Origin: Candidatus Omnitrophota bacterium
Lineage (GTDB): Bacteria > Omnitrophota > Omnitrophia > Omnitrophales > Aquincolibacteriaceae
Assembly (NCBI GenBank): GCA_022709525.1
Contig: JAKLIQ010000006.1
Span: 2,708 to 66,707 of the forward strand
Reading direction: 5' to 3'
Length of the DNA stretch: 64,000 nt
Below are positions 3,222 to 56,841 of this stretch, piece after piece; positions within the stretch are counted from its first letter, which is position 1; every line of letters starts with the position of its first letter. The notes beneath the pieces are model-generated. The model was not told the DNA's origin and did no database searches. It was given only the letters and a program-made list of their open reading frames with translations. The translations under genes were made by a program, and so were the position numbers.

Positions 3222-6200
3222 ATGGATTGTCTTAAGAATTTAAGGCGGTTTTTGGCGGGTATTGTCGCCTTCACATTCTTCGCGACGAACACTCTCACCC
3301 CAACTCCGAGCGCCTATGCGGCGAACGTAGAGTCTCCGTCCTTTGTTTCTTCTTTTAAGATCCCCGCAGAATTCGGCAAAGTCACCGATATTTTCTTAGG
3401 GACTCGGGACTCGTTCCTAGGGACTCGTAGCACAAAGAACTCAAACGAGTCCCGCGTATTAATTCATATCCAGGAAGCCCACGCCAATTATGACGCCCAG
3501 AAGAATATCCGGAATATCCTTGAGTATTTATCCCAAAATTACGGTATCAAGCTCGTCCTTTTAGAAGGCGCCGGGAACAAACTCCAGCCCGAACTTTTCA
3601 GGTTTTTCCCGCAGGACGCGGAACTTCAGCAGGCGGTGAATGACAAGCTGATGGAGATCGGCGAACTGAACGGCGCGGAAGTGTTTATGATTGAAAATAC
3701 GGGACTCGGGGCTCGACCCTTGGGACTCGATAAAACTAGGAACAAAAACGAGTCCCTAGTCCCTAGTGACGAGTCCCGCTCCGAAAGCGTTGCCGCTTTC
3801 GGTGTTGAGAATACAGCCGCCTATGTCAAAAATCTCGCTAGCTACCGGGAGGTTTTTGAAGGACGCAAGATCGCGGATGATTTTCTCGGAGCTTTCTATA
3901 CCCGATGGCAGAGATCGGCCGACCTTTCCATGAATAAATCCCTGCGCGAATTCCTGGGCCGCGAGACGGCATTCGAAGAGGATCGCGTTCCGCTCCAGGA
4001 TTGGCTGGAATCCTTGAAGAAAACGGCTTCCCGGGAGCTCGAACTGGACCTTGATAATGTTCGCGTGCAAAACGACTGGCCCGTGCTTGTCCGCTACTTT
4101 CGGCTGAAGCAGATCGCCCCGAAGATCAATGCGGCAAAAGCCCGGCAGGAAAAAGAAGTATTTTTACAGGACCTCAAAGCCCGCCGGATCCCTTCGGAAC
4201 TCCTTCAGGAGATCACAAAACTCCTCGAGCACAAAAAAGACGGGGACCTTCCTCCTTACAAAACCCGTTTTGCCTTCGAAAAACTCATGGATCTTCTGCC
4301 GACGGATTATTCGTTCGAACAATACCCCAATTTTAAGCTGCATCTCCAGCAGTTGATCCTTTTAAGCGAGCTCCAGAGCGATCAGCTTCAGGAAGAGATT
4401 GCGAAGCTCACCGAAAAACTCACAGTCCGTCTTACTCAAACTGAAAATGATAAACAACTCGTCGCGGTTTTGCATGATTACCGCCTTGTTAAAAAATTAT
4501 TTCAGCTCGAATTGAATCGTGGTGAATACCAGCAGCTTTTATCCCGCAATGTTTCACCCGCAAACATTATTAAGGGACTCGGGACTAGTTCCTCGGGACT
4601 CGGGAATCCAGGAAAAACGAGGAGCGAGTCCCGAATGACGAGGCTCGAGCTTCTCTACGGGACGGCAATCCGGTTTTACGAGGGAGCGATCGAGCGTGAG
4701 CATTGGATGATGCAAAAAGCGCTCGAGCGGATGCGGGAACGTAAACAGGCCAAGGCGGTCCTGATCACCGGCGGTTTTCACACCGACGGCTTTAGGGAAA
4801 AGATCCTCGCCGGCGGCAGTTCCTATATCGGGATCACCCCGCGCATCGGCGAGATCACCGCTGATTCTCAGAAGAATTATATTCAAACCTTGTTGGGTTT
4901 GAACGGGACTAGCGCCTCGCACCTCGGGACTCGTAAAAACGAGGAACAAAAACAAGTCCCGAGTCCCGAGTCCCGAGTCCCTGTCGCTGTAAGCGACATC
5001 GCTGCCACCCCTCGCTCTGACATCCGGCTCATGGCGGAAACGGGAGCGCTCGATCACTCCTTAAGCCGCATCGAGGCCGCCTCGATCGACATCGTTGCTT
5101 CTACTCGTCCCGAAAACCGCGAAACCTACCAAGCCCAATTAACCCAAGGCATTCAAACCATTAAAGACGAAGTTTTTAGTGGGCCAACTTCTACCGTACG
5201 CGCCGAAATGCGGAGAGCAATCAGGGTCGAGATTCCGGAACAGGTGAATAACGCCTTGAATTTGGAGCAATACCTTCGCAGTCTTTTGGGTAAAGCGGAG
5301 TACGGAACGCAAAATGTAACGCTCGAAGCGATCGCCGCGGGTGAATGGCGCATTGTCCTCGTTACCCAAAAAGGAGAAACGATCCCTACTTCCAATATGG
5401 CCCTCGCAAGTTCGATTCTTTCCGAGAAGGGCTATCATAACGGCATTCGCGATCTTCAAGCTATTGAATTCCATCCTCGCTCCGAAATGCGGGAGCGGAT
5501 CCTGCTTGTCGATGACAGCGAATCGGACCGCGCGCTCTTTCGGGTTATCCTGGAAAGCAAAAAGTATGAAGTGGTTGTTGTTGAAAGCGCCGAAGAAGCT
5601 CTCGAAGAGTACGCAAGAGCCAAAAAAGAAGGGAAGCCCTTCGCTGCCGTTGTTTCTGATTGGAATATGCCGAAAATGAAAGGCGACGAGCTGGCGCGCC
5701 GGATCACGGACGTGCCCTTTATCCTTCAAAGCTCGAACATCCTTGAGGACGGCACCGCGGAGAACCCCGCCGAACAGAAGATCCTGGATGAACTGGCCGC
5801 CTTAAACCCTTTTTTCAGGACCCATTCCAAAAACGAGCTGGGATTTTTGGCCGAGAAGCTGGCGGGACTCATTTTTGCCGCGAAACCCCCCGTTTTAAGC
5901 TTTTTGGAAATGCACAGCGCATTTACCGCGATCGCCAAAGAAGCCGCCGGCAACGATGATCTTGTCAAATTCATCAATGATAAATGGGAGCCCTTTTTGA
6001 CCACGGGCCCACTCACGAAAACAAAAGAGAAACCTTTAAAAACCGGGCAGGACTGGCAGCAATATTTCCTGAAATTGGGCCGCTTGAACCACGACCCCGA
6101 TATCGCCGCCGAAGCCTACAGACGCTTTCAGGCAATGGTGAAAAAAAATACAGGCAAGGAGTTGCCGCCCTTGCGCGAGGGGCCCCGCCAGCGTTCTGAA

Positions 6201-9200
6201 ATACGCACAACGGCAAAAAAAGCTGCTGATGCAAAACGAACCATCAAAAATATCGCGGATTATGTTCGGCCCGAACAAGGACAGAAAAAAGGGATCGGAA
6301 AGATCACGATACCTTATTACAAAGGCGGTGTCGAAATCAGCTATCGATTCGAACGTCTTAAAGAAAAAAAGAAAGAAATTATCGAAGTTTTCAAGAATTT
6401 GATAGCGGCTTTGGAACTCGAAGCTGAGGAGGAGCCGGAAATAGGCAGGCATTTTGAAGAGGGTATGAGCCATCAGGACCTCGTAGGCGTTTTCCGTTAT
6501 GACTTGGAGCAGAACCATATTTTTATGTTGCTTGCTTGGCTCAAAGCGTTGGGATTTCTGGACCTTTCCCCGACCCAGCAGGCGCTTTTGGAAAAAATGA
6601 AAGAAACTAAAAGCGCAGACAAGATCAAGCTCTACCCTAGAATCTTAAATATTGATTTAAAAGTTTTAAAACCCGAAGTTGAAAAATCGAGCGTCACAAG
6701 AGAAGCCGAAGAAGAGGATCTCGAGCCGGACGCAAACGACCTTGAAGGCGAAGACGCGGAAGCGCGCGCAGAAGTCAGGGCCTCTCAACCTGCCGGGAAA
6801 ACCGGTTTCGGCATCTTTTATCGTTTTAAACTTGCCCTGGCCATCGGGATCATCGGACTCTGGTCCGCGATCATGGCGCGGGCCCAGACCGTATTTCCCG
6901 GCAAACCTTACCTCGAGCATTACGCGGGGCTTTCCGGATCAGGGTCGATCGCGCAATATAGCAGCGCTCATTTCAAATGGAATTTCCGCATTTGGAACCC
7001 CGGCTACTCATTAGCCGTTTATAATTTTGGAACAACCGCTCAAGGCCCGCAAAATCTAAGCGGTTACACCAGTTTTAGTTGGGACGTCCGCTCCTACATT
7101 AACAACACCACAGGCCATCAGGGTGTTTTCCGGGTCGAATTCAAAGACACGGACGGCGATATCGCCAGCAAGACCGTTAGCGGCATTTATAGCAACTATC
7201 AGACCGTTACGATCACTTTGGCGGAACTTCTCGCCAGCAATCCTGCCTACAACCCTCAAAACACCAAAGAGATCGTTTGGGTCGCGGACAGCAATGCTTA
7301 TATGCCAGATGACTATGAAGGGTGGGCTGAATTTAAAACGGGCGGGCTTTTCTTCACCACGAATATTTCTCCCAACGCCTCTTATACCCTTTATGACACG
7401 ACCGAGCTTCCCGAAGGGACCGAAGGCGCGGTGGACCCTGTCACGGTCTATCCCGTCGGCGCGTCGGTGACAGCCAGCAATCAGGACCACGGGATCGCGT
7501 TCACTTATAACACGGGCGGCCAGACATGGGCCGGCGCCGGCATGGCGTTCGATGATTTCGGAACAGTACCTGTCGGCACAGGGGATTTGAGCGGTTTTTC
7601 GAACCTTGTTTTTGGCATTAAGGCCACCGGGACCACGCAGCTTAAGATGGAAATCGTGGATAGCGCCGAGAACAAGGAATATGTCTACTTAAACGGCATG
7701 AATGCCGGGTACCAGACATGGGTCATCCCGATGAGCTTTTTTGCCGGCATCGATCTTGAGAACGTCAAAGTCATTTATTTTATCGTCGAGGGCGCAGGCA
7801 AAAGCGGCACCGTCTCTATTAACCACATTCCCGAGACGATTGACATTACTGGCGTCAGACGTCAGCAAAATAATGATGTCGTCACTTTTTCAAGCATTTC
7901 AGGGCTTACCTATCGCGTGGATCAGAGCGCGGCCGGCCTTGTCAGTCCGAATTGGCAGACAGGCGCCACCACAAGAGCTCTCGGCCCCTCCGCGACGATC
8001 ACCAACAGCACCGGGTCTTCTTCTAATACCGTTGTGACACGGGTGATTTATAACCGTTCTGAGGCGAGGGAAGAAAAAACCCCGGCCTATAAGATCAAGT
8101 CGGAAGAAGTAAGCGTTTATGATCCGTCTAGTCCGAAAAGCGAGCCGTATGCCGTCGCCATGGACCTTGTTGAAGAGGTCCGGATATCCGAGACAAGAAC
8201 AGTTTATTTCAAAAAAGCCGCTTTTGAGGAGGCCTATGAAATTTATCTTAAGGGCGTGCCCAACGCTCTCGGCCTTTTGAAAGAAGGCGTCAGGACCCGA
8301 ATAGGCGATCTTCCGTTCCGTTTTATCGCCCGGGAAGGAAAACTGATCATCCTGGCGGAAAAACCCGGCATTGTTGTGATGAAGAAAATCCCGCAAACAG
8401 AAGCCGCGATAGCCAAGAAAACGCCCTTAGCCGCGAAAGCGCCGCTTCGGATCAAAAAATCCGAACTTACCAAGATCCAGGGAGAGGGAAGGAGCCGCTC
8501 CGAAGCGCGGCTTGATATCGAAAAGGAAATGTTCAAAAGTTTTTCGGAGCTTTCTTCCGACCTGCGGGTAAAGCTCAAGACCGAATGGAGCCGTTTCAGG
8601 CGTTTCGGCGGCAACTCACTTGAAAAAGCGCTGCGTGAAGACAATGAGGCGGGCGTTTTAACCCTCCTGGAATATTACTGGGAATTCGTCGGGGAGAAGA
8701 TCGTGCCTCCCGATGTCCTTTCCGGCAAGGTATCGATGGTGGCCCTGTCGCTGACCGGGGCTTGCGTTATGGGGCTCGTGGGTCTGACAGAAATACCGGT
8801 CCACGCCTTATTGATCAACCTTTCGATCTGGAGTTTTATCGCGGCAAGCGGTGTGTTCGCGGTTTCTTTGGCCGGAAGCCTTATTGGCAATCGGATGAAA
8901 CATAGCGAACTGGCCCGCGTCGATCACCTCATCAAATTAATGAGAGAGCTTATGGTCCGCCGGAACCATCTCCCCCTTTCGACTTTGGAGGAAAAAACGC
9001 TTTCGGGCGCATCTTCCGGCGCTCCCGTCGAAGCGGTTTACCGGCCGCCCCGAATGATCCAATTTTCGGAGCCGTTTGTGGAAGGCGAACGTCCCGGTAA
9101 AAGACCGCCTGAAGTGGAACCGCCTGCCCGTGCCGAACTAAGAGGTTTTGGATTCGATGTTCCGGATTGGGCCGTTGGAAGCGCTTCGAACTACCTCAAG

Positions 9201-18698: not shown

Positions 18699-18745
18699 TC
18701 CAAATACCGGGACTGGGTCTGCCTGCCGGCCAGGCAGGGACTCGT
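18699..18745 (+). terminator. GC-rich hairpin immediately after the giant 1 stop. Candidate intrinsic terminator, merged into the repeat complex.
   Basis: gggtctgcctgccggccaggcaggg (ctgcctgcc / ggccaggcag stem). Confidence 0.3.
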
Positions 18746-18882: not shown

Positions 18883-18892
18883 TCCCTCCCTT

Positions 18893-19774: not shown

Positions 19775-19780
19775 TCTAAT

Positions 19781-19859: not shown

Positions 19860-19866
19860 GGGTATT

Positions 19867-31310: not shown

Positions 31311-31349
31311 GCCCTCTTGCAAAAAACCGGGTCTTTATAAAGTGTTCTT

Positions 31350-32405
31350 ATGAATAAAAAACAGATCGTTATTTTAGCGATGATCCTTGGTGTTCTCGCG
31401 CTTGGAACGCTTCTCAAGTTATGGGTCCGTTTCGTGGAAGAAAGAGCGATCTCGGCTCAAAAGACCGGAACTGCGATCATGAAATTCGATCCCGCCAAGG
31501 CGGAGCGTATTTTGATAGACCGTCCCGGAAAACAGACGGAGCAGAAGGCGCAATCTTCTCCGGTAGAATTGACCAAGGAAAACAATGTCTGGAAAGTCAG
31601 AAGCCTTTGGGGTGTTGAAGCGGATCCCGCCAAAGCGGAAACCTTGATCCGGACGCTGGGCGCGCTTTCAGGCGAAGTCCGGGGAACAGGCAAGAAACTT
31701 TTTCCGGATTTCGGGATCCGGGAGGACGATGCCATCTCCATCAAGGTTTTTGACGCAGAGAACCGCCCGCTTTCGGATCTTTGGCTCGGGACAAAACAAG
31801 CCGGTAACGGTTATTTTGTCCGTAAGGCCGCCGGTGAAGAAATTTATTTTGTAGAATCCGATATGCCGGGCCTGCTGGCGATCTACACGGGCTTGGCGGA
31901 GGCGGCCCCTTTAAGCGAGAACTGGGCGGACCTCACACTGTTTAACCTTGATCCGGCCAAAGTCGTCAAGATCACGGCCTCCCAGATCAAAGGCGACGAA
32001 AAGACCCTGGTTCTTGGTTTGATCCTGGAAGCCGATCCGAACGATCCTGGTAAGAAGATCTGGAAATTCATGCGTAAGGATATGAAATTCTCTCCTGATC
32101 CCGAAAAAATCGCCGGGTTTTTCGCCGTTTTAAAGGGAATCAAAGCTCAAAAAGTTATGGATCCCGCCGGGAAAGAATATGGCGTTGAAAATCCCGTGTG
32201 GCAGCTTGCGGTAACGGCAGAAGACGGGAAAACAATCCTTAACGCGAGCGCGAAGGATGCGAAAGAAGAGCTCTGTTATGTCAAACTTTCAAACAAGGTC
32301 ACGGTTTTCGGCTTGGCGGCGCATGATTTTGACGATCTGAATGTGGATGATACGCATTTTGTAAAAGAAGCCGTTTCGAAAAACGCGGAAGGGAACCGCG
32401 CGTGA
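31350..32405 (+). CDS. DUF4340-like protein commonly found next to GldG-type ABC genes. N-terminal TM anchor.
   Basis: [25 protein letters not shown] anchor. The operon context is GldA/F/G-like. Confidence 0.45.
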
Positions 32406-51000: not shown

Positions 51001-54000
51001 TTTATAAATGAAGAATATCTGGAATTTATCGGAGGCGCGCGCTATGACGAGAAAGGCGAAGAATATCACCACGGACGCTTGGCTCAGGCCTTTGAGATCG
51101 ACCTCACTCAATTTGACCATGTGCTTATTTACGGTTCTGCGGAAGGCGCCTCTCCGAAAAACCCGGAAGGAGAGATCAGTTTGACATTCTTAGAGAATCA
51201 TTACCCGCAGGAAAAGGGAAAATTCCTGGCGACGCTTCTTGCGGCAGGCGGGGTCCCGCTTTCGAAAAAAATAAATGTCCGGAACAATTCCGTTCCCGTC
51301 AAATCCATCAAAACCCTCGCTGACATGCTTTCGTTTAATGACGGCTCTTCAGCTCCGCGTTCGGAAACGCGCGCGCCGCTCAACTTGACGATTCGATACT
51401 CCCAGGATTTTTATAATGTGATCGCCCGGATGCAGGCGAATGAGCGGTACGCTTTGATGAACCGGCTATATCGATTCCTGAGAAGCGCTCAGCATACCAC
51501 AAGCACCACGGGAGTCGGCAAGCCCTTGACCGGCGGTTTGAACATGTACAAAGAGTTCCAGTGGGGGGATTACAGGATCCTGTTCATTTATAATATCCAT
51601 CGAAATTTTCCGGAAAATGATCCGGCGCGCCGCGAATTCATCCTTTTCCTCTGCTGGTACAAAAAATGGAGCATTGATAGTCAAAAACCTTTGAATGACG
51701 AAGCCCGTAACAATAAAGCCATTCAAAAAATACTGGATCCGGCTTTGCCGCAGGACGGAGAAAAGATCCAACAGCTCCTCAAGTGGTTTTATGAGGAGCG
51801 CGAAGAAAAACCAATAGCCGATCTGGAAGATTTTGATTTTTTAAATCAGGTTGCGCCTTCGCTCCTTTTTTCCCCCATTCAAAAATTAGACCTTGAAGAT
51901 CTAAGGGGGACCCTTGAAGCCAATCTCAAAGTTAAAGAAAGTTTTACGAATGCTCCCATTTTATACTTTGCCATTCACGACATGCAGGCGGCGCTGGAAA
52001 AAGAACCCGACAATTTAGAAAAAGCCGCGCATCTCTGGCTGGGCAAGAGCGGGACAGTGCCGCGGGAAGAAGCCGAGCGGGCGAAGCAGTTTTTAAGGCA
52101 ATGGACCAGCGCTGAATACCGGCTCTTGGCGTTGATCGAAAATGATTTAAAAGAAAATGAATCCGCTCAAGGTTTTCGCAAGGCGCTTGGTAACATTGCG
52201 TGGGTTTATTTCGAACTCGCGGAAAAACCTTTCAGAAAAAAGATCCAGCAGAAAATAGAAGAATGGGCGCAGCGCCGGCCCGAGACCTCCAAAGGGTTGG
52301 GGCAGATCCAAGCGGCCTATGCTCAATTAAGGAAAGGAAATGCGGGGGAAGATGTTTTTTCGAGCCCTCTCGTTGAAAAAATGATCGAAGCGCGGAAGGA
52401 ATGGCTGCGTTCGCCGCCAGTCGTAAAAAAGCCTGTGTTAAAACCGGAACCGGCCGCTGTATCGCCGGCAGAAGTTACGCCTGTTTTGGCGATTCGCAGG
52501 GAGCCGGAACCGGCTTCCGTTCCACCGTCCATCGAGCGCGAACCTTTGAAACTTCCGGACACGCCGGTTGTTAAGGAAGCGATTGGGAAAGCCAAGAAGC
52601 TTTTTGAAGATTGTAAAATCCGGCCCGATCTAATAACGGACGCCAACGCCGAAACCGCTTTGGCCGTAGCGCTGGATCCCCAATACACGTTCAAAGAAGC
52701 GGGAGCGAAGCTCGAGAAGCTTTTTGAATCTTCAATCGGCGAAAATACGGCTAAGGATCTTCGCAAAGAGCTCGAACAGCTCGGTTTTTTAGCGGCTTTG
52801 CATCAAATGAACCAAATCCGGGCCCTTAAACATTTGACACAAATGTTTAGCAAGGCAGAAGTTTCCTTCGAGTCAGGAGACGTTATTCAAGCCGAAACTC
52901 TTGTAAAGTCGGCTATCGTCGCGGATGGTTACGGCCGGCCCACTGAAGGCAAAAGCTCTCTTGATAGCTTATTGGGGAAAATAAAGGAGCTCGAAGAGTC
53001 GATCAAAGCGTTGAAGAAATGGACGGCGGTTCTGCTCGAAAATCCTGAAACCTCGGCGCCCTTATCAAAAGCGGACCTGGATAAATTGGTTGCTGAGTGG
53101 GATGGTTTTTCAAAAAAACAGCAAAAAGCCGCCGAGCATCTTTTGTCTTCCGAAACAAGCCGGGGCCGCTTGAAGGACAACCTAGCAAACTCCTTTTTTG
53201 TCGCCGCTTTTCTCCTGCCGTTTGTTAGGGAGCACAAGGCCAGTTCCGGATGGGTAGAGATTCTCATCAAGGACCCCGCCATGATAAGAGATATGAACAG
53301 AGAGCTTATAAACCGTGGGGCAAAGGTTTTGACCGAGACGCAACATGTTTTCCCCGTAAGCCCAAAAGGGTCTCTCCGTTCGGAGGTAAGAGGAAAAAAA
53401 GAAGTTACGCTCGTCATGCCAAAGGGTCCGTACGTTTTTTCTGATTTTGAAAGTCAAGAAGACCTGGCGCCGGAGGTCAGGGCTTTTGATTTAAAAGATC
53501 ACGACATGGAGTTAAGTTTTAACTTCGAAGCCTTTGATGCTCAGGGGAAAAGCCGGTTCTATTTCGATCGTATTCACAATATACTTTTTTTCAACGGCGT
53601 ACCGCTTGCTTTCTACGGTAAAGAACGGGACGAGAATTCTCCTCTCGAAGAGATCTATCAAACGCCGGACGAATTGGCGGCAGGCCATTCGCCAAGCAAA
53701 GTCGATGCCATCCTTCCGAGCGGCAATTTGGGGCAAAATGATTGGTTCGTTGCTATTGTGGACGACAAGGTTTACCACTATTCGAAGGACCCGCTTGACC
53801 GAGTTTACGACATGCTTCTTGTCAAAGAAGACGGTACGCTTGAGGTCCGCAGCCTTCGATTTAAAGATCAGAAAGGAATGCGCGGGATTTATGATAAAAA
53901 CTATCGTTCGATCCCTTTCAAGATCCGTTACGGGTTTTACGGGCAGCGCCTCGTTAAAGACAGGAAGCTCAATCTTGCGGGGGTCGCCACACAGTTCGAT

Positions 54001-56841
54001 GATCTCAGGCATCTTTTCCGTTTTCCTAGATTCAAATTTTCGGACGACCGAGAAGTCCATCTTGGATTCAGCGACGACGAGGGCGAACTTTACCGGGACC
54101 CTCATAAGATCGAGAAAGCTTTGCGCGGCGAAACCATCGGCCTTTCCTTAAGGCCCCTCCTCGATATGGGGGTTTCTGTCGACCAGGTCGAAGCTATTTT
54201 TGAGGCGTGGGGTTATATTCGATTGGTAATGCCGGTACCGCTCGCGGAATTCAAACCGGGCGAATATTTCATCAACGAAGAGAAGAACATAATCTGGGTG
54301 AAATTACTTCCCGGCATTCATCCGCACAATTTCTTCGGTTTGGACCAAAACGGAAAATTCCTTACCGGCGCTGTCCCGGGCGACACGCATTTTGAAGGGG
54401 CAACCCTCGAAACCCTCGGGAATCATTTGATCGAAAGATATCGGGCCAGGGATATCTTTATTTGGGGGAACGGTAAGGATTCGGTTCTAAGTCTTCCTCG
54501 GGAAAAGGAGGTTTTTGGCGCGAAACATAAGCGCGAAAAATTCTTAAGCGCCATTTTAGTGGTTCCCAAACAATTCCGTTCCGAAACGCGGGAGTCTGAA
54601 ATCCGCGGAAAAGAAGAACAAGCGGTTCTTGATCGCATCGAAGCTTATCTGGCCGCCATGAAAATAGGGGATGAGCTCGAGCTTGACATCATGAAGGCGC
54701 AGTGGATGGATGAGCTCGGGAGGGCGGGAAGCAGGATGATGTGGAGCGATCTTTACGGGATCCTTTCAGTACAGCTTTTTCCAAAATACGGCATTGTCTA
54801 TGAGCCCCACAAGACCGGCGGGTATTTCAAACGTTTTCCAACCAAAGGGCCGGCTCAAGAAAATATTCGCACGCCTGAACTTGCTCCGGCGGAAGAGTTA
54901 AAAATGCAGGCAGAAGCGGAAATGAACCGAGAAGAGCTTCAAGTGCCGGAGGATCTTAAGGATAAGATTTTTATCCATGACAGTCACCGGTTTGCCTATT
55001 ATCAGATCAAAAAAGCCGTGGAAACCCAGAAGATTCCTAGCGGACTGCCGCTTCTTTTGCTGGACCAGCATAGCGACAATAAAGGCATTATGCTGGAAAA
55101 TGTTGCCGAATGGCATGGCATCACATGGAAAATCCCCGCCGAAATGGACCGCGCTTCCGGACAGAACATCCTCGATTCCGGCAACTGGATCAATTATCTT
55201 CAAAAAGACAAATTGGTTGGGCCGGTTTTCTGGGCTTATCCCTATGGTCGTGAAATTTTTATGGGCGAAGGGCAGCAAGCCTTTGAAGCCCAGGGAGCCA
55301 CTCTGCGCAAGATCTTGAAAGATCATCCGGGATCTTTTCAAGACGGCGTAATCCTTTCCCTGGACCTGGATTATTTTGCTTCTCAAGCGAATGACAAAGG
55401 GGAAAAAGGTTACCGGCCGCCCAAGGGCGAGATCAAACAAAAAATGGAAAATATTTTTAATTTGCTCAGAACGTATGGCGTCAAGATCCGTTTGCTCAAT
55501 GCTGCTTATTCTCTGACGCCGTTTTCTTACGCGCCCTCCGACTATAAACCGGAATTTCAGGAAGCCCTCCGGGAAACCATCCGGGCCAATACCGAACTTT
55601 TTGTTCGCTCGGAAGCGCGGAAAAAAGAAAGTTCACAGGAATATACAGAACAGGTTGAAAAGGTTCTTGATCTGCTGGGTGGCATGAAAGCGAGTAAAGG
55701 CCGGGAGAGGCAAAAAGCCTTTGAAAAAATACAGCAATGGCAGAATTGGGTCGCTCCGGAAGATCAATATGCCGCTGATCGTTTTAAACGAAAAGATGAA
55801 AGGGTGTATGCCCCGCTGGAGATCATCACGGGACATTTGAAGAATCCAAGATTCTATCCCGAATTCGAGCAAGAAATTGTTGAATTCTTGTTTTGGGTCC
55901 ATGCGGACGATCAGCCGCTCTTTGAAAAGACCGTCGAAGTTTTATTTGAAGACGCTGCTTTTCAACGTCAAAGTCCTGATGAAGGAAAGCGCAAACAAGG
56001 CGAGGCGAGCACGGGTCTTCTCCGCGAATTATTGATGCAAGCGAGCAGCCGGGATAATAAAACCTTTTTGCGTTATCTGGAAAAAATGTTCCGTGGCCTC
56101 GGGAAAAACCGTTCTACGGCCGAAAAATTCATCGGGGAACTGATGGTCACCCATAAAAATGACGCCATGGGCAGAGGATTGCGCGACGCCTTGGATAAGG
56201 TTTGGCCCTCAAGAGCCGAAATAAGGGTTTCGATGGATGCGGCGGAGGGGACGTTCCGGCAAAGCAAAGTTTCAAAAATGACGCGCTCGGAGTTAAGAGA
56301 TTTATTGGAACAGGTGATGCCAAACGCTTACCCTGAAAAAACCATACAAGCCACCCGTTTTGCCAAAGCGAGGGAAATGCTTGGCGTCAAAACCGTGGAG
56401 ACCCAAGACGCTCTTATCCTTACCAAGGAATTCGCGTTCGATCGTAAAGCCCTGCTGGCGGTTCAAAAAGTTTTCAGCGGTACGGAGATCGTTGTCTTAG
56501 CCGATGAAGACCAGCTTAGTCAAGCTGACCGTGATTTTCTTGACCAACTTCCTCAAGCCAACCGGCCTTATTTGGTCTCTGCTGCCCTTTTGAATCATCC
56601 GAAAGTCTTTTCGGATGCGCTGAGAAAACTCCTGGGCCGTACAGCCGTCGGCCGCTCCGTTCATTTTAAGGCTATGGCCGGAGCGAACGATCCTGCGGCG
56701 GAGCTTTTGAAATCCCAGTTTGACGATGATGCGATCCTTTTGACCGAGCGGACATTCGAAAACTTCCTCAACATCGCCGGCGTTAGCGCTCTTGTAAATG
56801 CCATGACGGTCCAATACAAAGCCACGGCGAAGTCGGCGTAA
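36061..56841 (+). CDS. Giant multidomain protein 2 (about 6,920 aa; the ORF is open from TTG 36049; an alternative ATG is at 36115). Order: signal, TraB/Tiki-like domain, unknown module, 4-TM cluster, methyltransferase-like, GNAT, Hef/RIG-I-like SF2 helicase, 2 TM, HPr-like, TM plus a second TraB/Tiki-like domain, GNAT-like, RelE/ParE-like, arginase-fold, shared C-terminal domain.
   Basis: Single uninterrupted 20.8-kb ORF. The signal-like MPDHNKTTFSLPVRAIAMFVLFAFTSTTIAWSAP segment. Domain motifs are listed separately. Confidence 0.85.
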   Translation: MLRKDGKSKVKGLSAVSKMPDHNKTTFSLPVRAIAMFVLFAFTSTTIAWSAPSVGTEVKELSREIKINQLAERITVPSEIGIIKEIHTASPASALSPQFSGLIVHLEDAHGSVEAQLHQEAILRHLRKEYGLDTIFVEGGLGDLRPELLSFLEDEKRNSELINKLTEKGLVGGVERFLATKSPDQRLQTADHSLKTKDFKAIAPVSSLKSSVRAFGVESAELYRRELELFREVYAHKAESDQFLNGIRRQLLAQSASGFNKELKAFFKEWLFQEEVQKDILSHLSFLQKYAVETLNLDLTDAREQYDWPQLVRFFKLKNLEGLVPRDSELARDEMQKLAQWLNDQKLDDLNKELELFFNEPRGASFESRGETFRTRMEKFYAKVSPRGFRFEDYPALTKRIGSIILSQEIQTGELLQEMERLNAKILEALAKTQEEKRGIAQYQEYLLLKKLFSLELTREEFKQMGLAPRDSLLEKTRGQAESRIPSSEPPAREVYSRALEFYEIAQQREEAIFKNMLAKMKSIKQPNAVLITGGFHSEGLSEFLKAKGVSYVRIAPRISGKMDDANYLRIMTLGQCAPAARSSARFATLTNDPKSLDAATVEFIRAELRTSIREIADDVIPSNEWIISKDLLGRQSEAMVPRDSGLGTGFKNESLGTSDKSRAEGRSEAREEEKDPSALEKEFERLFPSNKELMLALFGEIVLQNKNIEKFFYQLMAIYGLASWDGEHYQSTTKRPLSPEQALYFVSLLRLEGGGFLGDEYEFIYKTKKGKRTVEKTVAYTDLDPEYLEWAVKYKIPIEYFPLTYSLFIDKKEGLPQTGTTKIAIRAGNQLGEELFREFIEKRGPRVREPLVNAKGVDPKNLRWLKIHPDSHLSKIADSHGIDPKDLKLGFEKEGDQHSVYLFTANETFNAEASRRFDASHVASIPIGFVSIRYDGNTPFIYGYQPRFFIPSHGKEDANDVVGRTIKGGMLFLEAFLEKEISKIVSAKKPVKKLHFPTPSWHLVNSKVAGTTAFRYYYEFPKEQGFQLVLATPESKAFNMGKSWQPHWLLEKHIEKNRSEMRGSSISVKWSEKIAKLKQTPDYRLLAYLLKNTGLSEIEKNRYITLWLMMAISAPLTGSLKFVFAAGAASLAAVSPWFVMAPPLVVLLLSPLFRLVFFVGPFWAASGFKMKLDWLIPANFVPGLGAFIAVPAQILKSLKGEYRQYQNMSVRKLRQLVYQLDGILSEHRMNLPQEDLDAIRSRLPMMAFKVLEFQAAHPGFSLKKNGKENPEAILHLESVDLLPVRLESLIREKTPTIFLGSGQESFNTLRQRIPPDRLPGLDFYQFDLSQEPGIEKDSIQPLAARSEARHKGLFSNVTPLDKIVEKHKQWNLHKVVDVLDRKAREIKTFFWWELLEQWRTDGGSFYFTSEEKNFSESLRRASDDQFKEQVERLLRTSFAKRDLILSSKKDYPTFDELINSFETGFLSFYSNLFGVLADEAVSGRLPAAEKNWKVLMPELIRRWNENDSARSEMRNDIEKNIEKILEQADVRIRSGDEVESEPGVYAATPPVYLTAIEKVLQIDPRKELILIEAGHAQGLLALRLAMKHPNLRIIGIEGRPSLYEDSKKILEAAIELRFLRPEQVHFYEGDLNDEEFSKDYEAADIVYYYNYGADDETKFALTLADHLKYGARVVVFDGFLDGGEADHFSQALRETEVFEGTIVQGVRSIPVFKKTLDTQDVSLEGNRSEVRNEAATSRALPGASKRFAYAEEVARVVGLLGELRQLDNTRVLAQTENGVGEENWSRWIQHHMAGKLHVFFGYWNSFNESGDIEDLETAEKGLQEAENIFESRKSFKEALQNDFDHFHLNPPLEKVRSGKPLFPLELVHYFLHKVFVENPNAQKNREVYARVIQDLEEAFYEMREAFERVKTEKYFKTAEELEKNPPANVSSQKASSEVLRHFRVYDGMDGKLYADPRVWYRENFSGFDHFAAIGPGEIVFLTLDEGATGAVASLGHHECLSLAIRARAGNKNVIGLAHVFYDIMAGNSQDSYVKYLKILDHLHAQKEWSDIQIILTENNVFHGFPKGMNLDVLKREAADRGIQVSSAEVWKFGTDAWVDIIATPQEVFLRKREGTAPFRYEPKDWGAPIRTDPGDPRTVSFMPSTLVSEDGEEFEVSYEDGSVDGQRTIKLLYDGQPVATVDFRIDPKQNAAILDYNNDGPKRYVGIEVNQFFSERYSGIGTALMGLAFRVARDEGIPEFYVLHSKADGFYEKLGMIKIRDGVFRFPLEDSEREKQRLSFPPLRIRSNPRSELRKKKEEDPNQLKLFEASETKELDPENALMRQLGYAWEQMKQAIQSPEELEKALYEKIPAVKKAVEFLGFQVVEENRKLFVTDPVFKRKIQFRAYQVLLAAHAARGDAMVILPTGLGKTIVAVLVVGYLLKQAPQKKILITANSNLLVEQHADTFDQYFESDIIAKIGESDNEEGRRSLWRRARIVIATNDLVVADPGVFLIDDIGYLIVDEAHRVGAAPDDRYAGTRLVQAYREKNPDGKLLGLTASPRPKKELKGWQQNLRLSDTDFFAASEEDSWIYPYVIKRNAEIARAERDAKFPLLFMILRFLEDVFKVVRTTDIRADFEDARQKVLNAWLEENDEKIQKVFDGFLQDTARQAAASSQRVLMQEQYGPVLELIRKVRTELVPQMFDLKASKAVRIAEWAALFEKPVFSDPKFLELSVAVRTSFETELFRKAAQDLETLIDRQKYRIYELWQQNLQKSLLNVKGDMSRLSHEKIERLWEKTSEEFRDNPDDFGVAYKAAVEAKNWKEKDRLDVLVTLNQLWHLRGDWIKYGPEKFTGTIQTKDLEAKASWKKRTRPALERTSVLDAASWFQKSREIFPKEKILLDLLRPVQGKPHDRTAIFVDDKKMARRLVELIKKEFPDLRVAMLVGRGMGGSDEGMTPREQERVRDDFNKGKLDILVGTDVMAEGLNLQGLRRVIEYTPARRAIEKIQRQGRVSRFEEGWVLSLVTPWDRSIYFGTQQRVEATRRLIRDLQKRNPYTEFRSETRISLRTERNEVPVRAEMRASVAEEIEERVSSMYDKGDLEVGYWWFDFEEYDARRKDPDYPTLPTDRISKIREAMEEFRDLRTDKNQMIYARNIHWILGVPSVGIMLIHLLLLAQGDGEVYWKTSFGLLGAVALLNYFFSRVVDYTTNEHPYEKILDILESIDRQGPDESQGPSVRSEARDRVSQLAQNFVIQNPNGIHLRPAAGIVKIAQQIFAALGITVWLQKSGQGERVPAQSETKVALLGLRQGDSVTVILDSREGESYPRRFFEKIMKLWKKLFNDPEALKAGLSGEKGLPYFSAITSLVPEKDASRRSEIRTKHPPQKRVMKFRDVAYYYNNFDKAAEIFKKILKASEKGVINAGDRIWRETLPAIKSYYDAYNKRGEIPEDFRVMAMLVRAIMIFQMLMGKKTSIPQTSKPAKRSAVSENHFKDRYRFWSDAALFNKIAEVLKALKNPDMAAKIRDPKLGLPQFDTPQMTRLNELAAMDRFVHPEKLELEDIFTRFDRRHAAARGETSFRSETREPLLLDGNVKLTAIREKLSDISELHLDRDIRKAVAMQIRRVILAKQDRLGWEDLQKIEGLEDLNLSVLKENFKLPVKTPVRSLKYSRRFAWGLAGLLAASALSIAGWFKWESSRARQSLTATFQKAGDVKSEIYQDLEKVYFEKMPLYNVFPAALYKDPLYFPNQEWGNYHLTVIGDIHTHPDTPALILDAARLIAEDPQQWVLLVEGYEEWKKNRNENAVDLVLLDELIKRTKAPVLDFVPLPSDADVLEGIQERLEFSKEEILNISCFLKLGFYFTVADDSGRPQEWALEKTLNLMSSRTGLPKEYFLNQLTALAQSLKDLDDVGLKKVWEKIVRFQLIEIEARNTVGQKRVREFLSKYPNRKNIFVITGSLHLPIFDIRLPPEHQPMTLPYDFFTESLSRYYSVLELNASSFRSEIRGDTKDSALAWSHKRTKELLAAMSPAVQDTISKFLKEKILRHRNNRLMEWSRSLKNQSHAAKIKNDIEQWSGGIESPKGKKNEEIIALIEPWLDGDYFWFDEIAWNPIQVTEYMLQVFLSHTSPAFSNWAEEKAAQFNMTREEFLTRLLTDIRLIELLVIVFMQSNLHSTFPGMPVTILTLKDEVLASATHTGDTIANGQNPLETIPEKKKEPWLEVLKRSFQKPQPVSKKEPEKVAWYRRVIAVSEEKIRGLVDAKAREKGTEEFLDSFIPELIHFVKHSRDFKASEHELVSMKKELDRYVGLKNLFSFIPRSDPPARQDGSPTKNSTDPSGPVADVLLSRAEMRISAAELVKRERQLDQWALMAEELKKIKRLQDTSEKAFRRQRESIAEQVMNYAMSDEVFMDRLITADFEAAAGMLTSFPYLKKEDQPILKVMLEIVFPPEAATRHLKASWLQVICCGVSGLGLFLKNILRPKKTFQNGTQGSKSESPAVFTDTTSSAGRRSEMRAEEKNLPQTEGKLFNNLSLDTLAETLAPVVLDMRDRRENVYVEGKNKRREVIGVVRFQPGLQIALAPRFAGRSFYNSHDEFAQKAGFTETVDEKGYARLWLTFNEEKELIRIGLSPDADKIISSDEKRKQLAALALMTAKILRSLEDHDLDFKLGGFALEIGGRTSLLGDHERNAVWGQSQSSIEMLDRLSTLGTTEPGVQEMRSELRETTGDIVLRQKGRDMWETERKPDKMVFHFETLEMQKLPKGSQRSRAYEFRTVFKTLFPALAYEAYKGERSFALNPDRINVLLLSEGKPAGFYSYSKLPYQRNQLLGFGVIQDYRGTGAEDVLWEDIKARVFYNNPKARIIVPDIALLNSRAAPGRFEGTAEDLKSALGIEGAAPKEESSAGQGVRADETIAQEHAFEAYTKRIFTPEFLKKYETKLAEMRDAIGLTLRSYGHQLVNRQEMAKEIVDFLEQSAATTETRLSLAKLPQGVTQEGSKRATFFFFINEEYLEFIGGARYDEKGEEYHHGRLAQAFEIDLTQFDHVLIYGSAEGASPKNPEGEISLTFLENHYPQEKGKFLATLLAAGGVPLSKKINVRNNSVPVKSIKTLADMLSFNDGSSAPRSETRAPLNLTIRYSQDFYNVIARMQANERYALMNRLYRFLRSAQHTTSTTGVGKPLTGGLNMYKEFQWGDYRILFIYNIHRNFPENDPARREFILFLCWYKKWSIDSQKPLNDEARNNKAIQKILDPALPQDGEKIQQLLKWFYEEREEKPIADLEDFDFLNQVAPSLLFSPIQKLDLEDLRGTLEANLKVKESFTNAPILYFAIHDMQAALEKEPDNLEKAAHLWLGKSGTVPREEAERAKQFLRQWTSAEYRLLALIENDLKENESAQGFRKALGNIAWVYFELAEKPFRKKIQQKIEEWAQRRPETSKGLGQIQAAYAQLRKGNAGEDVFSSPLVEKMIEARKEWLRSPPVVKKPVLKPEPAAVSPAEVTPVLAIRREPEPASVPPSIEREPLKLPDTPVVKEAIGKAKKLFEDCKIRPDLITDANAETALAVALDPQYTFKEAGAKLEKLFESSIGENTAKDLRKELEQLGFLAALHQMNQIRALKHLTQMFSKAEVSFESGDVIQAETLVKSAIVADGYGRPTEGKSSLDSLLGKIKELEESIKALKKWTAVLLENPETSAPLSKADLDKLVAEWDGFSKKQQKAAEHLLSSETSRGRLKDNLANSFFVAAFLLPFVREHKASSGWVEILIKDPAMIRDMNRELINRGAKVLTETQHVFPVSPKGSLRSEVRGKKEVTLVMPKGPYVFSDFESQEDLAPEVRAFDLKDHDMELSFNFEAFDAQGKSRFYFDRIHNILFFNGVPLAFYGKERDENSPLEEIYQTPDELAAGHSPSKVDAILPSGNLGQNDWFVAIVDDKVYHYSKDPLDRVYDMLLVKEDGTLEVRSLRFKDQKGMRGIYDKNYRSIPFKIRYGFYGQRLVKDRKLNLAGVATQFDDLRHLFRFPRFKFSDDREVHLGFSDDEGELYRDPHKIEKALRGETIGLSLRPLLDMGVSVDQVEAIFEAWGYIRLVMPVPLAEFKPGEYFINEEKNIIWVKLLPGIHPHNFFGLDQNGKFLTGAVPGDTHFEGATLETLGNHLIERYRARDIFIWGNGKDSVLSLPREKEVFGAKHKREKFLSAILVVPKQFRSETRESEIRGKEEQAVLDRIEAYLAAMKIGDELELDIMKAQWMDELGRAGSRMMWSDLYGILSVQLFPKYGIVYEPHKTGGYFKRFPTKGPAQENIRTPELAPAEELKMQAEAEMNREELQVPEDLKDKIFIHDSHRFAYYQIKKAVETQKIPSGLPLLLLDQHSDNKGIMLENVAEWHGITWKIPAEMDRASGQNILDSGNWINYLQKDKLVGPVFWAYPYGREIFMGEGQQAFEAQGATLRKILKDHPGSFQDGVILSLDLDYFASQANDKGEKGYRPPKGEIKQKMENIFNLLRTYGVKIRLLNAAYSLTPFSYAPSDYKPEFQEALRETIRANTELFVRSEARKKESSQEYTEQVEKVLDLLGGMKASKGRERQKAFEKIQQWQNWVAPEDQYAADRFKRKDERVYAPLEIITGHLKNPRFYPEFEQEIVEFLFWVHADDQPLFEKTVEVLFEDAAFQRQSPDEGKRKQGEASTGLLRELLMQASSRDNKTFLRYLEKMFRGLGKNRSTAEKFIGELMVTHKNDAMGRGLRDALDKVWPSRAEIRVSMDAAEGTFRQSKVSKMTRSELRDLLEQVMPNAYPEKTIQATRFAKAREMLGVKTVETQDALILTKEFAFDRKALLAVQKVFSGTEIVVLADEDQLSQADRDFLDQLPQANRPYLVSAALLNHPKVFSDALRKLLGRTAVGRSVHFKAMAGANDPAAELLKSQFDDDAILLTERTFENFLNIAGVSALVNAMTVQYKATAKSA
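37020..37050. repeat. Solo left arm (GGGACTCG x2) in frame in giant 2, encoding EGLVPRDSE.
   Basis: gagggactcgttcctagggactcgg. Confidence 0.75.
37133..37170. repeat. Solo right arm (CGAGYYYC variants) in frame in giant 2, encoding EPRGASFESRGE. It lies about 85 bp from the left arm, the same spacing as in mqnD.
   Basis: gagccccgaggagcgagcttcgagtcccgcggcg. Confidence 0.65.
37452..37520. repeat. In-frame GGGACTCG-family element in giant 2, encoding GLAPRDSLLEKTRGQAESRIPSSEPP.
   Basis: tgggactcgctcctcgcgactcgctcctcgaaaaaacaaggggccaagccgagtcccgaatccctagttccgagcccc. Confidence 0.8.
37978..38050. repeat. In-frame GGGACTCG element (3 tandem octamers) in giant 2, encoding MVPRDSGLGTGFKNESLGTSDKSRAE.
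   Basis: ggttcctcgggactcgggactcgggactggttttaaaaacgagtccctaggcacaagcgacaagtcccgcg. Confidence 0.8.
39380..39640 (+). other. Cluster of about 4 predicted TM helices in giant 2.
   Basis: ITLWLMMAISAPLTGSLKFVFAAGAASLAAVSPWFVMAPPLVVLLLSPLFRLVFFVGPFWAASGF...FVPGLGAFIAVPAQIL. Confidence 0.5.
40765..41110 (+). other. Rossmann-fold, class I methyltransferase-like module (weak).
   Basis: ELILIEAGHAQGLLALRLAMKHPNLRIIGIEG...FYEGDLND...ADIVYYYNYG...GARVVVFDGF resembles motif I-IV spacing of SAM MTases. The glycine motif is degenerate. Confidence 0.3.
42560..42860 (+). other. GNAT-family N-acetyltransferase-like module.
   Basis: VGIEVNQFFSERYSGIGTALMGLAFRVARDEGIPEFYVLHSKADGFYEKLGM (motif A R-x-x-G-x-G and motif B). 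Confidence 0.5.
43200..45100 (+). other. Superfamily-2 helicase of the Hef/FANCM/RIG-I-like type, with a roughly 330-aa insertion between RecA-like domains.
   Basis: Motif I MVILPTGLGKT (43264-43296), motif II VDEAH (43568-43582), motif III GLTASPRP (43671-43694), motif V VGTDVMAEGLNL, motif VI QRQGRVSR (45024-45047). Confidence 0.8.
45750..46000 (+). other. HPr-like phosphocarrier domain (PTS HPr fold), flanked by TM helices and RSE[AI]R motifs.
   Basis: FVIQNPNGIHLRPAAGIVKIAQQIF (compare HPr [23 protein letters not shown], with the His15 equivalent present), ...ETKVALLGLRQGDSVTVILDSREGES. Confidence 0.5.
47240..47900 (+). other. Second, internal TraB/GumN/Tiki-like domain in giant 2, preceded by a TM helix. 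It carries the canonical G-x-x-H first motif.
   Basis: YHLTVIGDIHTHPDTP (47262-47309), VLLVEGYEEW, NIFVITGSLHLPIF (47850-47891). Confidence 0.5.
50300..50560 (+). other. Second GNAT-like module.
   Basis: NVLLLSEGKPAGFYSY...LLGFGVIQDYRGTGAEDVLWEDIKARVFYNNPKARIIV. Confidence 0.35.
51500..51680 (+). other. RelE/ParE-like toxin-fold module (weak).
   Basis: LTGGLNMYKEFQWGDYRILFIYNIHRNF...EFILFLCWYKKW resembles the ...R-[IL]-[IL]-[FY]...H-R-x-x-[FY] arrangement of RelE/ParE. Confidence 0.25.
54950..55560 (+). other. Arginase/deacetylase-fold (UPF0489-like) module (weak).
   Basis: KIFIHDSHRF...LLLLDQHSDN...VILSLDLDYFAS resemble the D-x-H-x-D and S-x-D-x-D metal-binding motifs of the arginase/HDAC fold. 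Confidence 0.3.
56300..56838 (+). other. C-terminal domain shared with giant 1.
   Basis: See 18000-18695. ...RSVHFKAMAGAN...FENFLNIAGVSALVNAMTVQYKATAKSA*. Confidence 0.6.

Follow-up and report, generated by a model that had tools for sequence, protein, structure and literature searches.

A recurrent R-[S/A/P]-E-x-R pentapeptide at the module boundaries of giant Omnitrophota proteins, a candidate cleavage site of mosaic polyproteins

Viral polyproteins (of picorna-like viruses, flavi-, alpha- and potyviruses) are made from one open reading frame (ORF) as a chain of complete proteins with almost no linkers between them. Their cleavage motifs, which are 4–6 residues long, co-evolve with the protease of the same polyprotein, and the leader proteases are located at the N-terminus. 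The MARTX toxins of Vibrio and its relatives are secreted giants of up to 5208 amino acids (aa), with conserved ends and a strain-variable mosaic of effectors, and these effectors are freed by an in-cis protease at sites in the unstructured inter-effector segments (PMC5218395, PMC2900308). These two systems appear to be the closest analogues of two giant proteins encoded in a 64-kb stretch of Candidatus Omnitrophota DNA (contig JAKLIQ010000006.1; the whole stretch is called the window below), in which the pentapeptide R-S-E-x-R recurs between one module and the next. In our reading, which is held with moderate confidence, R-[S/A/P]-E-x-R is the boundary signal between the mature products of mosaic polyproteins, and most likely the site at which they are cut. 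What is new here is a candidate protease family, a candidate site and a phylum-wide scale for a putatively autoprocessed multi-module protein.

First of all, the comparison with the MARTX toxins gives both likeness and difference. The two giants of the window share only their N- and C-terminal parts, between which lie mosaic central modules that are shuffled among relatives, and the MARTX effector RRSP, an endopeptidase of the TIKI family (PMC6254334), is among the structural matches of the giants' N-terminal domain (N-domain). However, the giants do not belong to the MARTX family: Pfam detects neither RTX or glycine-rich repeats nor a C80 cysteine protease domain in them; the InsP6-activated C80 protease of MARTX cuts after a P1 Leu, whereas the signal of the giants is RSExR; and the candidate protease of the giants is N-terminal and TIKI-like, with an N-terminal Sec-type signal. 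Moreover, their cargo consists of enzymes of the central-metabolism and signalling type and not of known toxins, and their hosts are free-living or predatory Omnitrophota. Unlike the viral polyproteins, the genes of the giants are chromosomal and bacterial and stand amid housekeeping genes, their cargo contains no replication or structural set, their candidate protease has a predicted TIKI fold, and their modules are shuffled between paralogs and orthologs. The polyvalent proteins of phages and conjugative elements (Iyer et al. 2017) are reportedly carried by such an element or by a plasmid and enter the recipient along with its DNA. The giants differ from this class in that their neighbours are chromosomal housekeeping genes whose synteny is kept across species.

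Giant genes are a hallmark of Omnitrophota, and two sets of their products have been described, the 'Archaeovorins' together with the dockerin type (West-Roberts et al. 2023) and the 'multi-enzyme metabolic clusters' (2026 preprint). The published giants belong to the same phylum as those of the window, and signal peptides or transmembrane (TM) helices are common among them; the 'multi-enzyme metabolic cluster' class is further alike in that a single polypeptide is made up of many distinct enzyme Pfam domains, of which none predominates (REC, GNAT, sugar-metabolism enzymes, kinases, hexokinase). In contrast, the published giants have at least 10 and up to 147 thousand residues against the 5–7 thousand found here, so that the present giants miss the 2026 cut-off of 10,000 aa, and the peptidases noted in the published ones are C39 and S8, not TIKI-like. 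The literature explicitly leaves open whether such a giant works as a single molecule or as cut pieces: processing by proteolysis has been suspected from peptidase domains, and the cleavage points were stated to be unknown, which blocks structure-based analysis (10.1101/2023.11.21.568195). A boundary motif is reported in neither the 2023 nor the 2026 preprint (the 2026 text contains none of the words 'cleav', 'motif' and 'linker'), and no description of the motif was found in the literature on bacterial giant polyproteins or Omnitrophota polyproteins, of which the coverage was incomplete.

The window was scanned in six frames with the regular expression RSE[AILMVT]R. The ORF of giant 1 (3153–18698, 5181 aa) contains 10 copies and the ORF of giant 2 (36049–56841, 6930 aa) contains 18, that is to say, 28 copies are observed where 0.04 and 0.06, respectively, are expected from composition (about 0.1 in all; the original prediction had given a chance expectation of below 0.1). 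This prediction had also counted about 27 copies (10 + 17); its number for giant 1 was right, and in giant 2 it had missed the copy at 38059–38073, while two of its starts, 17021 and 41243, were one base off and are corrected here to 17022 and 41242. Among 2000 shuffles per protein, no shuffled giant held more than 2 copies. Only two matches lie outside the frames of the giants, at 37146 (off-frame) and 49726 (antisense), neither of them in a plausible gene; the window's other ~24 genes contain none, so that the motif is not equally common elsewhere in the window. On the strength of the shuffles and the control ORFs, a chance or compositional origin of the motif is ruled out. The tripeptide RSE continues as [AILMVT]R in 18 of its 18 occurrences in giant 2 and in 10 of 12 in giant 1. 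In addition, there are seven RAE[ILMV]R variants (giant 1 aa 683, 1205 and 1993; giant 2 aa 610, 3062, 4329 and 6722), and at least one of the seven, the RAEVR at giant 1 aa 1205, marks a true module boundary. The two genes and all sites are as follows (+ denotes the forward strand).

3222–18698 (+): giant 1, likely coding sequence (CDS) from Met24 of the 3153–18698 ORF; 5,158 aa
5199–5213 (+): RAEMR variant, giant 1 aa 683
5478–5492 (+): RSEMR, giant 1 aa 776, 2 residues upstream of REC
6192–6206 (+): RSEIR, giant 1 aa 1014
6765–6779 (+): RAEVR variant, giant 1 aa 1205, bounds a module homologous to aa 689–1114 of the giant in related locus L011
8055–8069 (+): RSEAR, giant 1 aa 1635
8496–8510 (+): RSEAR, giant 1 aa 1782
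9129–9143 (+): RAELR variant, giant 1 aa 1993
9537–9551 (+): RSEAR, giant 1 aa 2129
10113–10127 (+): RSEVR, giant 1 aa 2321, start of the phosphorylase-like module
13866–13880 (+): RSETR, giant 1 aa 3572, junction of the phosphorylase-like module and UGDH
17022–17036 (+): RSELR, giant 1 aa 4624, before NDK
17487–17501 (+): RSELR, giant 1 aa 4779, immediately past NDK
17946–17960 (+): RSELR, giant 1 aa 4932, before the C-terminal module
17961–18695 (+): conserved C-terminal module of giant 1, ends ...FARSA; the confident part of its model is alpha/beta
36115–56841 (+): giant 2, CDS from Met23; 6908 aa, identical to database protein P0016
37876–37890 (+): RAELR variant, giant 2 aa 610
38059–38073 (+): RSEAR, giant 2 aa 671, first site past the N-domain
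39235–39249 (+): RSEMR, giant 2 aa 1063
40096–40110 (+): RSEAR, giant 2 aa 1350
40591–40605 (+): RSEMR, giant 2 aa 1515
41242–41256 (+): RSEVR, giant 2 aa 1732
42931–42945 (+): RSELR, giant 2 aa 2295, between the GNAT module and the helicase
45181–45195 (+): RSETR, giant 2 aa 3045, after the helicase
45232–45246 (+): RAEMR variant, giant 2 aa 3062
45715–45729 (+): RSEAR, giant 2 aa 3223, before HPr
46126–46140 (+): RSEIR, giant 2 aa 3360, after HPr
46738–46752 (+): RSETR, giant 2 aa 3564
47998–48012 (+): RSEIR, giant 2 aa 3984
49033–49047 (+): RAEMR variant, giant 2 aa 4329
49522–49536 (+): RSEMR, giant 2 aa 4492
50146–50160 (+): RSELR, giant 2 aa 4700
51358–51372 (+): RSETR, giant 2 aa 5104
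53377–53391 (+): RSEVR, giant 2 aa 5777
54577–54591 (+): RSETR, giant 2 aa 6177
55606–55620 (+): RSEAR, giant 2 aa 6520
56212–56226 (+): RAEIR variant, giant 2 aa 6722
56284–56298 (+): RSELR, giant 2 aa 6746, before the C-terminal module
56299–56838 (+): conserved C-terminal module of giant 2, ends ...TAKSA

Giant 1 is composed of a signal peptide, a TIKI-like N-domain, about 14 modules and a C-terminal module, and giant 2 has the same layout with about 23 modules. As the original prediction had proposed, the motif falls between recognisable domains: each Pfam domain that was found lies wholly within one inter-motif segment, namely REC, a phosphorylase (weak), the three UGDH domains and NDK in giant 1, and GNAT, DEAD + Helicase_C and HPr in giant 2. 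The linkers are minimal, since the first beta-strand of REC (RILLVDD) begins 2 residues past RSEMR and the last residue of the NDK match directly adjoins RSELR. Enzymes of several domains are not split by the motif, as seen for the N-terminal, central and C-terminal domains of UGDH, for DEAD + Helicase_C, for hexokinase_1 + _2 and for the N- and C-terminal domains of glutamate dehydrogenase (GDH); in the related locus L060, hexokinase_1 + _2 fill the module of aa 1101–1586, and GDH N + C lie within aa 1587–2456. Because such multi-domain enzymes stay whole, the motif is a boundary between proteins and not a generic linker between domains. Over 1,066 modules of the family, the median length is 243 aa (interquartile range 137–442), and the kinds of modules include enzymes, receiver domains, helicases and small membrane modules.

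The boundary position can also be read from the way in which modules move between giants. Giants 1 and 2 are alike only in the N-terminal ~600 aa (29% identity, 4e-57) and the last ~170 aa (35%), and their middle parts are mutually unrelated (BLASTP); self-BLAST gave no internal repeats in either giant. When different giants were compared by BLAST with the N-domain left out, 50% of the starts and 32% of the ends of high-scoring segment pairs (HSPs) lay within −10 to +15 aa of a motif, versus 7% for random points. The junctions of the phosphorylase-like module in 19 giants illustrate this: the upstream sequences are unrelated, RSExR is in perfect alignment (RAELR takes its place in L022), 10–25 variable residues follow, and then the conserved module begins, while the module end shows the mirror image. 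The rank of a module differs between giants, as for giant 1 aa 1205–1634, whose RAEVR-bounded module matches aa 689–1114 of L011. Orthologous loci with conserved flanking genes encode giants of 3,200–5,200 aa with differing cargo; the cargo turns over quickly.

Several kinds of cargo deserve separate mention. A two-domain hexokinase of the eukaryote type (PF00349 + PF03727) is carried in L026 (aa 3300–3811) and L060 (aa 1120–1578), and the cargo of other relatives includes glutamate dehydrogenase, adenylate kinase (ADK), histidine phosphatase and REC. About 18% of modules have a strongly hydrophobic segment, which starts at most 20 residues from the motif in 30% of these; in the window, TM-like segments are located at 8730–8890 (giant 1 aa 1860–1912), 39427–39552 (giant 2 aa 1127–1168) and 45475–45531 (giant 2 aa 3143–3161).

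At the nucleotide level, the original prediction had held that codons vary, that selection acts on the peptide and not on a DNA repeat, and that several copies form hairpins. Variation is present but not free: at the window sites, the first Arg is CGY in 25/28 and Ser is TCN in 27/28. Over 333–415 sites of the family, the first Arg is CGY in 76–77% against 42% expected and AGR in 5% against a background of 25%, Ser is TCN in 91% against 67% expected, and the fourth codon tends to end in G, while Glu and the last Arg follow background codon usage. This bias is equal at RSE, RAE and RPE sites and does not occur at ordinary Arg-Ser dipeptides. Selection on the peptide is thus mostly right but incomplete as a description, since the first Arg and Ser codons are biased beyond background. 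For the hairpins, a perfect stem of at least 5 bp occurs at 9/28 window sites against 4.3 ± 1.8 after synonymous randomisation, with differing registers, which is marginal; and an RNA hairpin as a general feature was dropped, because over 415 sites the minimum free energy of 63-nucleotide segments lies 0.48 kcal/mol below that of synonymous-randomised sequences and that of controls 0.62, so that there is no family-wide excess of RNA stability. A 4-bp CCGY/RCGG stem is found in 20% of sites, with weak covariation (pair (−1,14), 0.495 against 0.432 ± 0.022).

These data bear on a reading in which the signal is a scar or recombination site at the DNA level, that is, a 15-nucleotide CGY-TCN-GAR-NNN-MGN sequence left by the in-frame joining of cassettes, with the peptide as a by-product. 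The shuffling of modules with breakpoints at the motif, the codon bias of the first Arg and Ser, the fact that YTCSGAR is its own reverse complement, and the weak covariation of the 4-bp stem all speak for it. We nevertheless consider it very unlikely, because invariance is seen in the amino acids, whereas the fourth codon and the third positions of the Glu and last-Arg codons follow background or vary freely; the sites persist at orthologous junctions with 40–50% protein identity, where synonymous sites are presumably saturated; the alternatives S/A/P, and the [AG][AS]SLG sequence described below, take the same role; and no recombinase or repeat structure was found nearby, the neighbours being housekeeping genes. 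Still less probable, to the point of being hardly credible, is a ribosomal event, in which the ribosome would make a programmed pause, or skip a bond as at 2A peptides, at the pentapeptide and its preferred codons, so that the modules fold or come free during translation with no protease involved. The preference for CGY, TCN and a G-ending fourth codon could reflect tRNA-dependent kinetics, but this bias is partial, with other codons at 20–25% of sites, and a signal of five residues with no upstream conservation does not suit arrest or skipping peptides, which need a longer nascent-chain context. To our knowledge, the pentapeptide resembles no 2A or arrest peptide. The codon bias may point to a secondary effect at the DNA, RNA or translation level, but what is invariant is the amino acids.

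The peptide itself is sharply defined. The logo of 415 sites has R at 100%, S/A/P at 80/13/7%, E at 100%, then V, A, L, M, I, S or T at position 4, and R at 100%, with the flanks near 0 bits; at orthologous junctions the motif is invariant though the flanks are only ~20% identical, which upholds a signal at the peptide level. Over a larger set of 1,452 sites, hydrophobic residues are depleted for about 8 residues on either side and small residues and Pro are enriched, so the flanks are linker-like in composition. Just before the first Arg, Asp/Glu are reduced to 0.3 times. Directly behind the last Arg, Pro is down to 0.26 times and Trp/Tyr to less than 0.1 times, while Ser, Thr, Asn and Ala are raised. 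That is to say, Pro is enriched around the motif except right after the last Arg, and this exclusion is consistent with a scissile bond there, judging from the general behaviour of proteases.

Different lineages use different versions of the signal. Among them, L013 uses RPExR (12 copies), and RAExR is used by L021 (13 copies), P0030 (18), L028 and P0045, with many giants mixing S and A. A separate N-domain clade lacks any RxExR and has [AG][AS]SLG (also with Q at the second place) at its module boundaries instead. To this type belong P0146, P0124, P0136, P0145, P0110, P0137, L050, L062 and L061, and SLG is found 20 times against 3.2 expected in P0146, 14 against 2.6 in P0124, 11 against 1.9 in L062 and 9 against 1.4 in L050. 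The first copy stands at aa 580–710, the ends of HSPs coincide with SLG in 36–45% against 7%, and in P0110 a REC domain begins shortly after GASLG. The RxExR and SLG types seldom occur together in the clustered giants, and most SLG-type proteins group by N-domain sequence. Since the motif type follows the N-domain clade, this is the pattern expected of a recognition site that co-evolves with its reader, and the signal accordingly looks, as far as sequences can tell, like such a site co-evolving with the protein that reads it.

The family behind these sites was delimited by sequence searches. Searches with the N-terminal region find homologs named Candidatus Omnitrophica or Omnitrophota. In a scan of relatives with one genome per GTDB species, 175 relatives were obtained, and the best 80 loci of the 175 were fetched (L001–L080); all 80 come from uncultured metagenome-assembled genomes, the majority bearing the title Candidatus Omnitrophota or Omnitrophica, and one genome often contributes several loci. 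An N-domain profile search of 1.84 billion representatives gave 8,629 matches at E ≤ 1e-3 and 3,312 at E ≤ 1e-30; among the matches listed, the domain is at the N-terminus of the protein in 150/150, the longest of these being 7,818 aa. The giants belong to a very large family, with these 8,629 matches as cluster representatives, that is confined to Omnitrophota. As the original prediction had suggested should be scanned for, the motif is kept family-wide in homologous giants, at module boundaries: the domain-bearing ORFs of the 80 loci contain 270 exact motifs in 208,928 aa, nearly all of the 32 'control' matches in these loci lie in adjoining tandem giant ORFs, and 142 further representatives contain 1,025 R[SAP]ExR in 444,794 aa (~1 per 430 aa). 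The first copy is usually at aa 580–700, directly past the N-domain.

All these proteins follow one layout, which is a signal peptide, an N-domain of ~600 aa, a variable string of modules and a conserved C-terminal module ending in [S/A]-Ala. The signal peptide is canonical (KNLRR, then FLAGIVAFTFFATNTL, then TPTPSAYA) and is kept in homologs; a hydrophobic N-terminal segment is present in 132/154 family proteins. Cysteine is rare, with 6 in the 5181 aa of giant 1 and 8 in the 6930 aa of giant 2 (0.1%) against 0.9% in 24 neighbouring ORFs; the family-wide average is also 0.1%, and the giants are thus depleted about nine-fold. Of the 6 Cys of giant 1, three belong to the central (catalytic) part of UGDH. 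Both the Cys depletion and the signal peptide argue for export, and the giants are therefore likely exported proteins. At the other end, complete members nearly always finish with [S/A]-Ala-COOH, as ...ARSA, ...AKSA, ...SAA or ...AAA (window 18684–18695 and 56827–56838; P0016–P0157). This tail might be a degron, a signal for a PDZ or C-terminal protease, or a secretion signal. Closer relatives share the alpha/beta C-terminal module, which is always preceded by the motif. The idea that the tail mimics the P-side of the motif was dropped, since -SA and -AA tails both occur among RSE-type giants with no clean correlation.

The giants often stand in tandem (L025, L026, L034, L042, L043 and L067). 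In L042 and L043, the reading frame is broken and the ORFs overlap by ~40 nucleotides, which may reflect a genuine split, a frameshift or an error of sequencing. The ORF of giant 2 is not an artefact of assembly, because the arrangement of SOD beside the giant was assembled independently in several metagenomes.

The N-domain is the part that all giants have in common and that stands first in the chain. Its features, together with a standalone paralog in the window, are as follows (− denotes the reverse strand).

3222–3320 (+): signal-peptide-like N-terminus of giant 1, MDCLKNLRRFLAGIVAFTFFATNTLTPTPSAYA, with a basic n-region, hydrophobic core and A-x-A end
3321–5072 (+): giant 1 N-domain, TIKI/ChaN/EreA-like fold as predicted
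3465–3482 (+): giant 1 H105-IQE-A-H110
3564–3566 (+): giant 1 E138
4779–4781 (+): giant 1 H543
36115–37968 (+): giant 2 N-domain including the signal peptide, 29% identical to the giant 1 N-domain
855–2966 (−): standalone 703-aa N-domain paralog, divergent from giant 1

Tiki, PrgY and ChaN are extracytoplasmic, and the likely location of the N-domain resembles theirs. The AlphaFold2 (AF2) model of the N-domain has a mean pLDDT (predicted local distance difference test) of 64.5, with a better core, and this core is a parallel beta-sheet flanked by helices, as in ChaN, EreB/C, RRSP C2 and HopBA1. From the model, the N-domain has the fold of the TIKI/ChaN/EreA (TraB-PrgY-GumN) superfamily. Sequence profiles see little of this: PF04187 (ChaN) matches weakly in 3/5 N-domain members (best E 0.0046, score below the gathering cut-off), no curated-threshold match was obtained in Pfam (PF01963 TraB_PrgY_gumN, PF04187, Tiki) or NCBIfam, and the N-domain profile had no matches among PDB sequences. 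The candidate catalytic set comprises H105-I-Q-E108-A-H110, Glu138 in LLEG and His543 in TGGFH. H110, E138 and H543 are invariant in 142/142 giants, the SLG type included; H105 is kept in 138/142, and position 108 is E or D in 91/142. The spacing of 28 between His110 and Glu138 equals that of His3902 and Glu3930 in RRSP, and E-x-H, Glu138 and His543 appear from the sequence to correspond to the 2His/2Glu set that is essential in RRSP and common to active TIKI enzymes (PMC6254334). Tiki and RRSP are proven endopeptidases of the TIKI family (PMC6254334), and bacterial Tiki/TraB peptidases have been predicted to mature peptides (PMC8939145). The N-domain is like the superfamily in having E/D-x-H on one strand, Glu 28 residues later and the late His of GGFH, and unlike it in having a helical insertion of ~300 aa and in its fusion to cargo that is thousands of residues long; R-S-E-x-R specificity is not known from any member of the superfamily.

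The standalone 703-aa paralog has a signal peptide, QDVH (D-x-H), ALEGA (with the Glu) and VVTGGFH, and ends with ...EKAA; its sequence contains neither RSExR nor Cys. The pair of a divergent giant and this paralog is found in at least 19 related loci, at 47–58% identity, and the paralog is, from its sequence, a candidate trans-acting partner or enzyme. It was considered whether it consists of the N-domain and the C-terminal module without cargo, and this found no support: hhalign of its C-terminal half against the profile of the C-terminal module gave a probability of 0.3%. Beside it, a 152-aa ORF (346–804, +) has a weak, below-threshold match to toxin models of the Rv0910 family (SRPBCC-like); it is 57–86% identical in 19 related loci and always stands beside the 703-aa paralog (20 loci matched in all).

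With the peptide and the N-domain described, the question is who reads the signal. One answer is that the pentapeptide is an uncleaved handle, bound by a partner such as the TIKI-like domain, a chaperone, an export or translocation machine or a scaffold, so that the giant stays a string of beads and the handle serves its ordered folding, threading or assembly as an intact chain. This would explain the conservation of just five residues, the boundary position and the switch of motif between clades equally well; non-proteolytic binders such as ChaN exist in the TIKI superfamily, and the literature mostly treats Omnitrophota giants as single proteins associated with the surface (PMC10066038). Although it is the main rival of the polyprotein reading, we regard it as unlikely, because the modules are whole enzymes, unrelated to one another and hardly separated by linkers (REC 2 residues on, NDK ending at the motif), because a scissile bond typically excludes Pro from the position that follows it, as is seen after the last Arg, and because the invariant His/Glu/His set argues for catalysis beyond binding.

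A second answer keeps cleavage and assigns it to an unrelated protease acting in trans from elsewhere in the genome, for instance an Arg-specific serine or cysteine protease, with the TIKI-like domain as an esterase, an anchor or a part of translocation. Two Arg residues suit many Arg-specific proteases, and giants of the same genome share the motif type, as expected of a shared enzyme. In addition, other Omnitrophota giants have S8 or C39 peptidase domains (10.1101/2023.11.21.568195). Yet all examined family members that bear the motif have the TIKI-like domain at their start, the motif type switches together with the N-domain clade, and Pfam finds no other peptidase domain in either giant; we judge a trans-acting protease of this kind to be quite improbable.

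The polyprotein reading, the first of those that the original prediction had offered, is the best fit to the whole-protein modules, the minimal linkers, the exclusion of Pro after the last Arg and the presence of a protease-like domain in cis. According to it, the giant chain would be exported, which fits the signal peptide and the Cys depletion. The TIKI-type domain, which is made first, or else the standalone paralog, would recognise the pentapeptide and cut at the motif or beside it, most likely at the bond that follows the second Arg, since the position beyond excludes Pro and aromatics. The modules would then be freed as separate proteins, by a logic like that of a viral polyprotein or a MARTX toxin. 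That the N-domain family specifically does the cutting is a narrower proposal, and we put it forward only tentatively, as rather doubtful. Somewhat less doubtful, though still short of probable, is the general picture that Omnitrophota widely export polyproteins carrying sets of enzymes, cut by an N-terminal TIKI protease at RSExR or [AG][AS]SLG, with Cys-free enzymes acting outside the producer.

Several points weigh against the polyprotein reading. Cleavage, the responsible enzyme, the bond cut and the site where the products act are all things that we infer from sequence. The TIKI superfamily includes esterases and a haem binder, and for this reason the fold alone is no proof of a protease. 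The AF2 model of giant 1 aa 4600–5181, which includes 3 motifs, has a pLDDT below 50 except in the C-terminal domain and is too poor to be read for disorder. The relation between motif type and N-domain phylogeny is confounded with species phylogeny, and the codon bias at the first Arg and Ser goes beyond peptide selection and may reflect a factor at the DNA, RNA or translation level. Finally, much of the cargo looks cytoplasmic (UGDH, NDK, HPr, helicase, hexokinase, GDH and ADK), and the first five of these look like enzymes that depend on nucleotide cofactors. This is odd for an exported protein, unless its products work inside a different cell. As a speculation, such action would fit the predatory or parasitic lifestyle proposed for Omnitrophota (PMC10066038).

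If the reading is true, a cellular organism would use a 'fuse-and-cleave' strategy like that of viruses or MARTX toxins, and the released enzymes could act inside the prey or host of ultra-small, possibly predatory Omnitrophota. Confirmed cleavage would amount to a rare case of large-scale polyprotein expression in a cellular organism, to a new substrate specificity in the TIKI superfamily and possibly to a new way of delivering many enzymes to another cell. On the practical side, the motif gives a rule for splitting giants into units for annotation and structure prediction, and it offers peptide substrates, candidate catalytic residues and specific termini for cheap experiments.

The remaining genes of the window are of the housekeeping type and encode an MqnA-like protein, an M24 peptidase, transketolase, GGT, NUDIX, ArsC and Bax1-I, as well as a gliding-type ABC system, ThyA, DHFR, MBL, TPR, SOD, radical SAM and HI0933 proteins. 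The ABC system lies between the two giants at 28054–32405 (+) and consists of an ABC ATPase, an ABC-2 permease fused to ABC_transp_aux + DUF7088, and a DUF4340 protein; it is of the gliding-motility type (GldA/F/G-like) and syntenic in L052. Long antisense ORFs occur inside the giants, at 10221–11591 (−, 456 aa) and 42973–44013 (−, 346 aa), and they probably arise spuriously from the codon composition of the giants.

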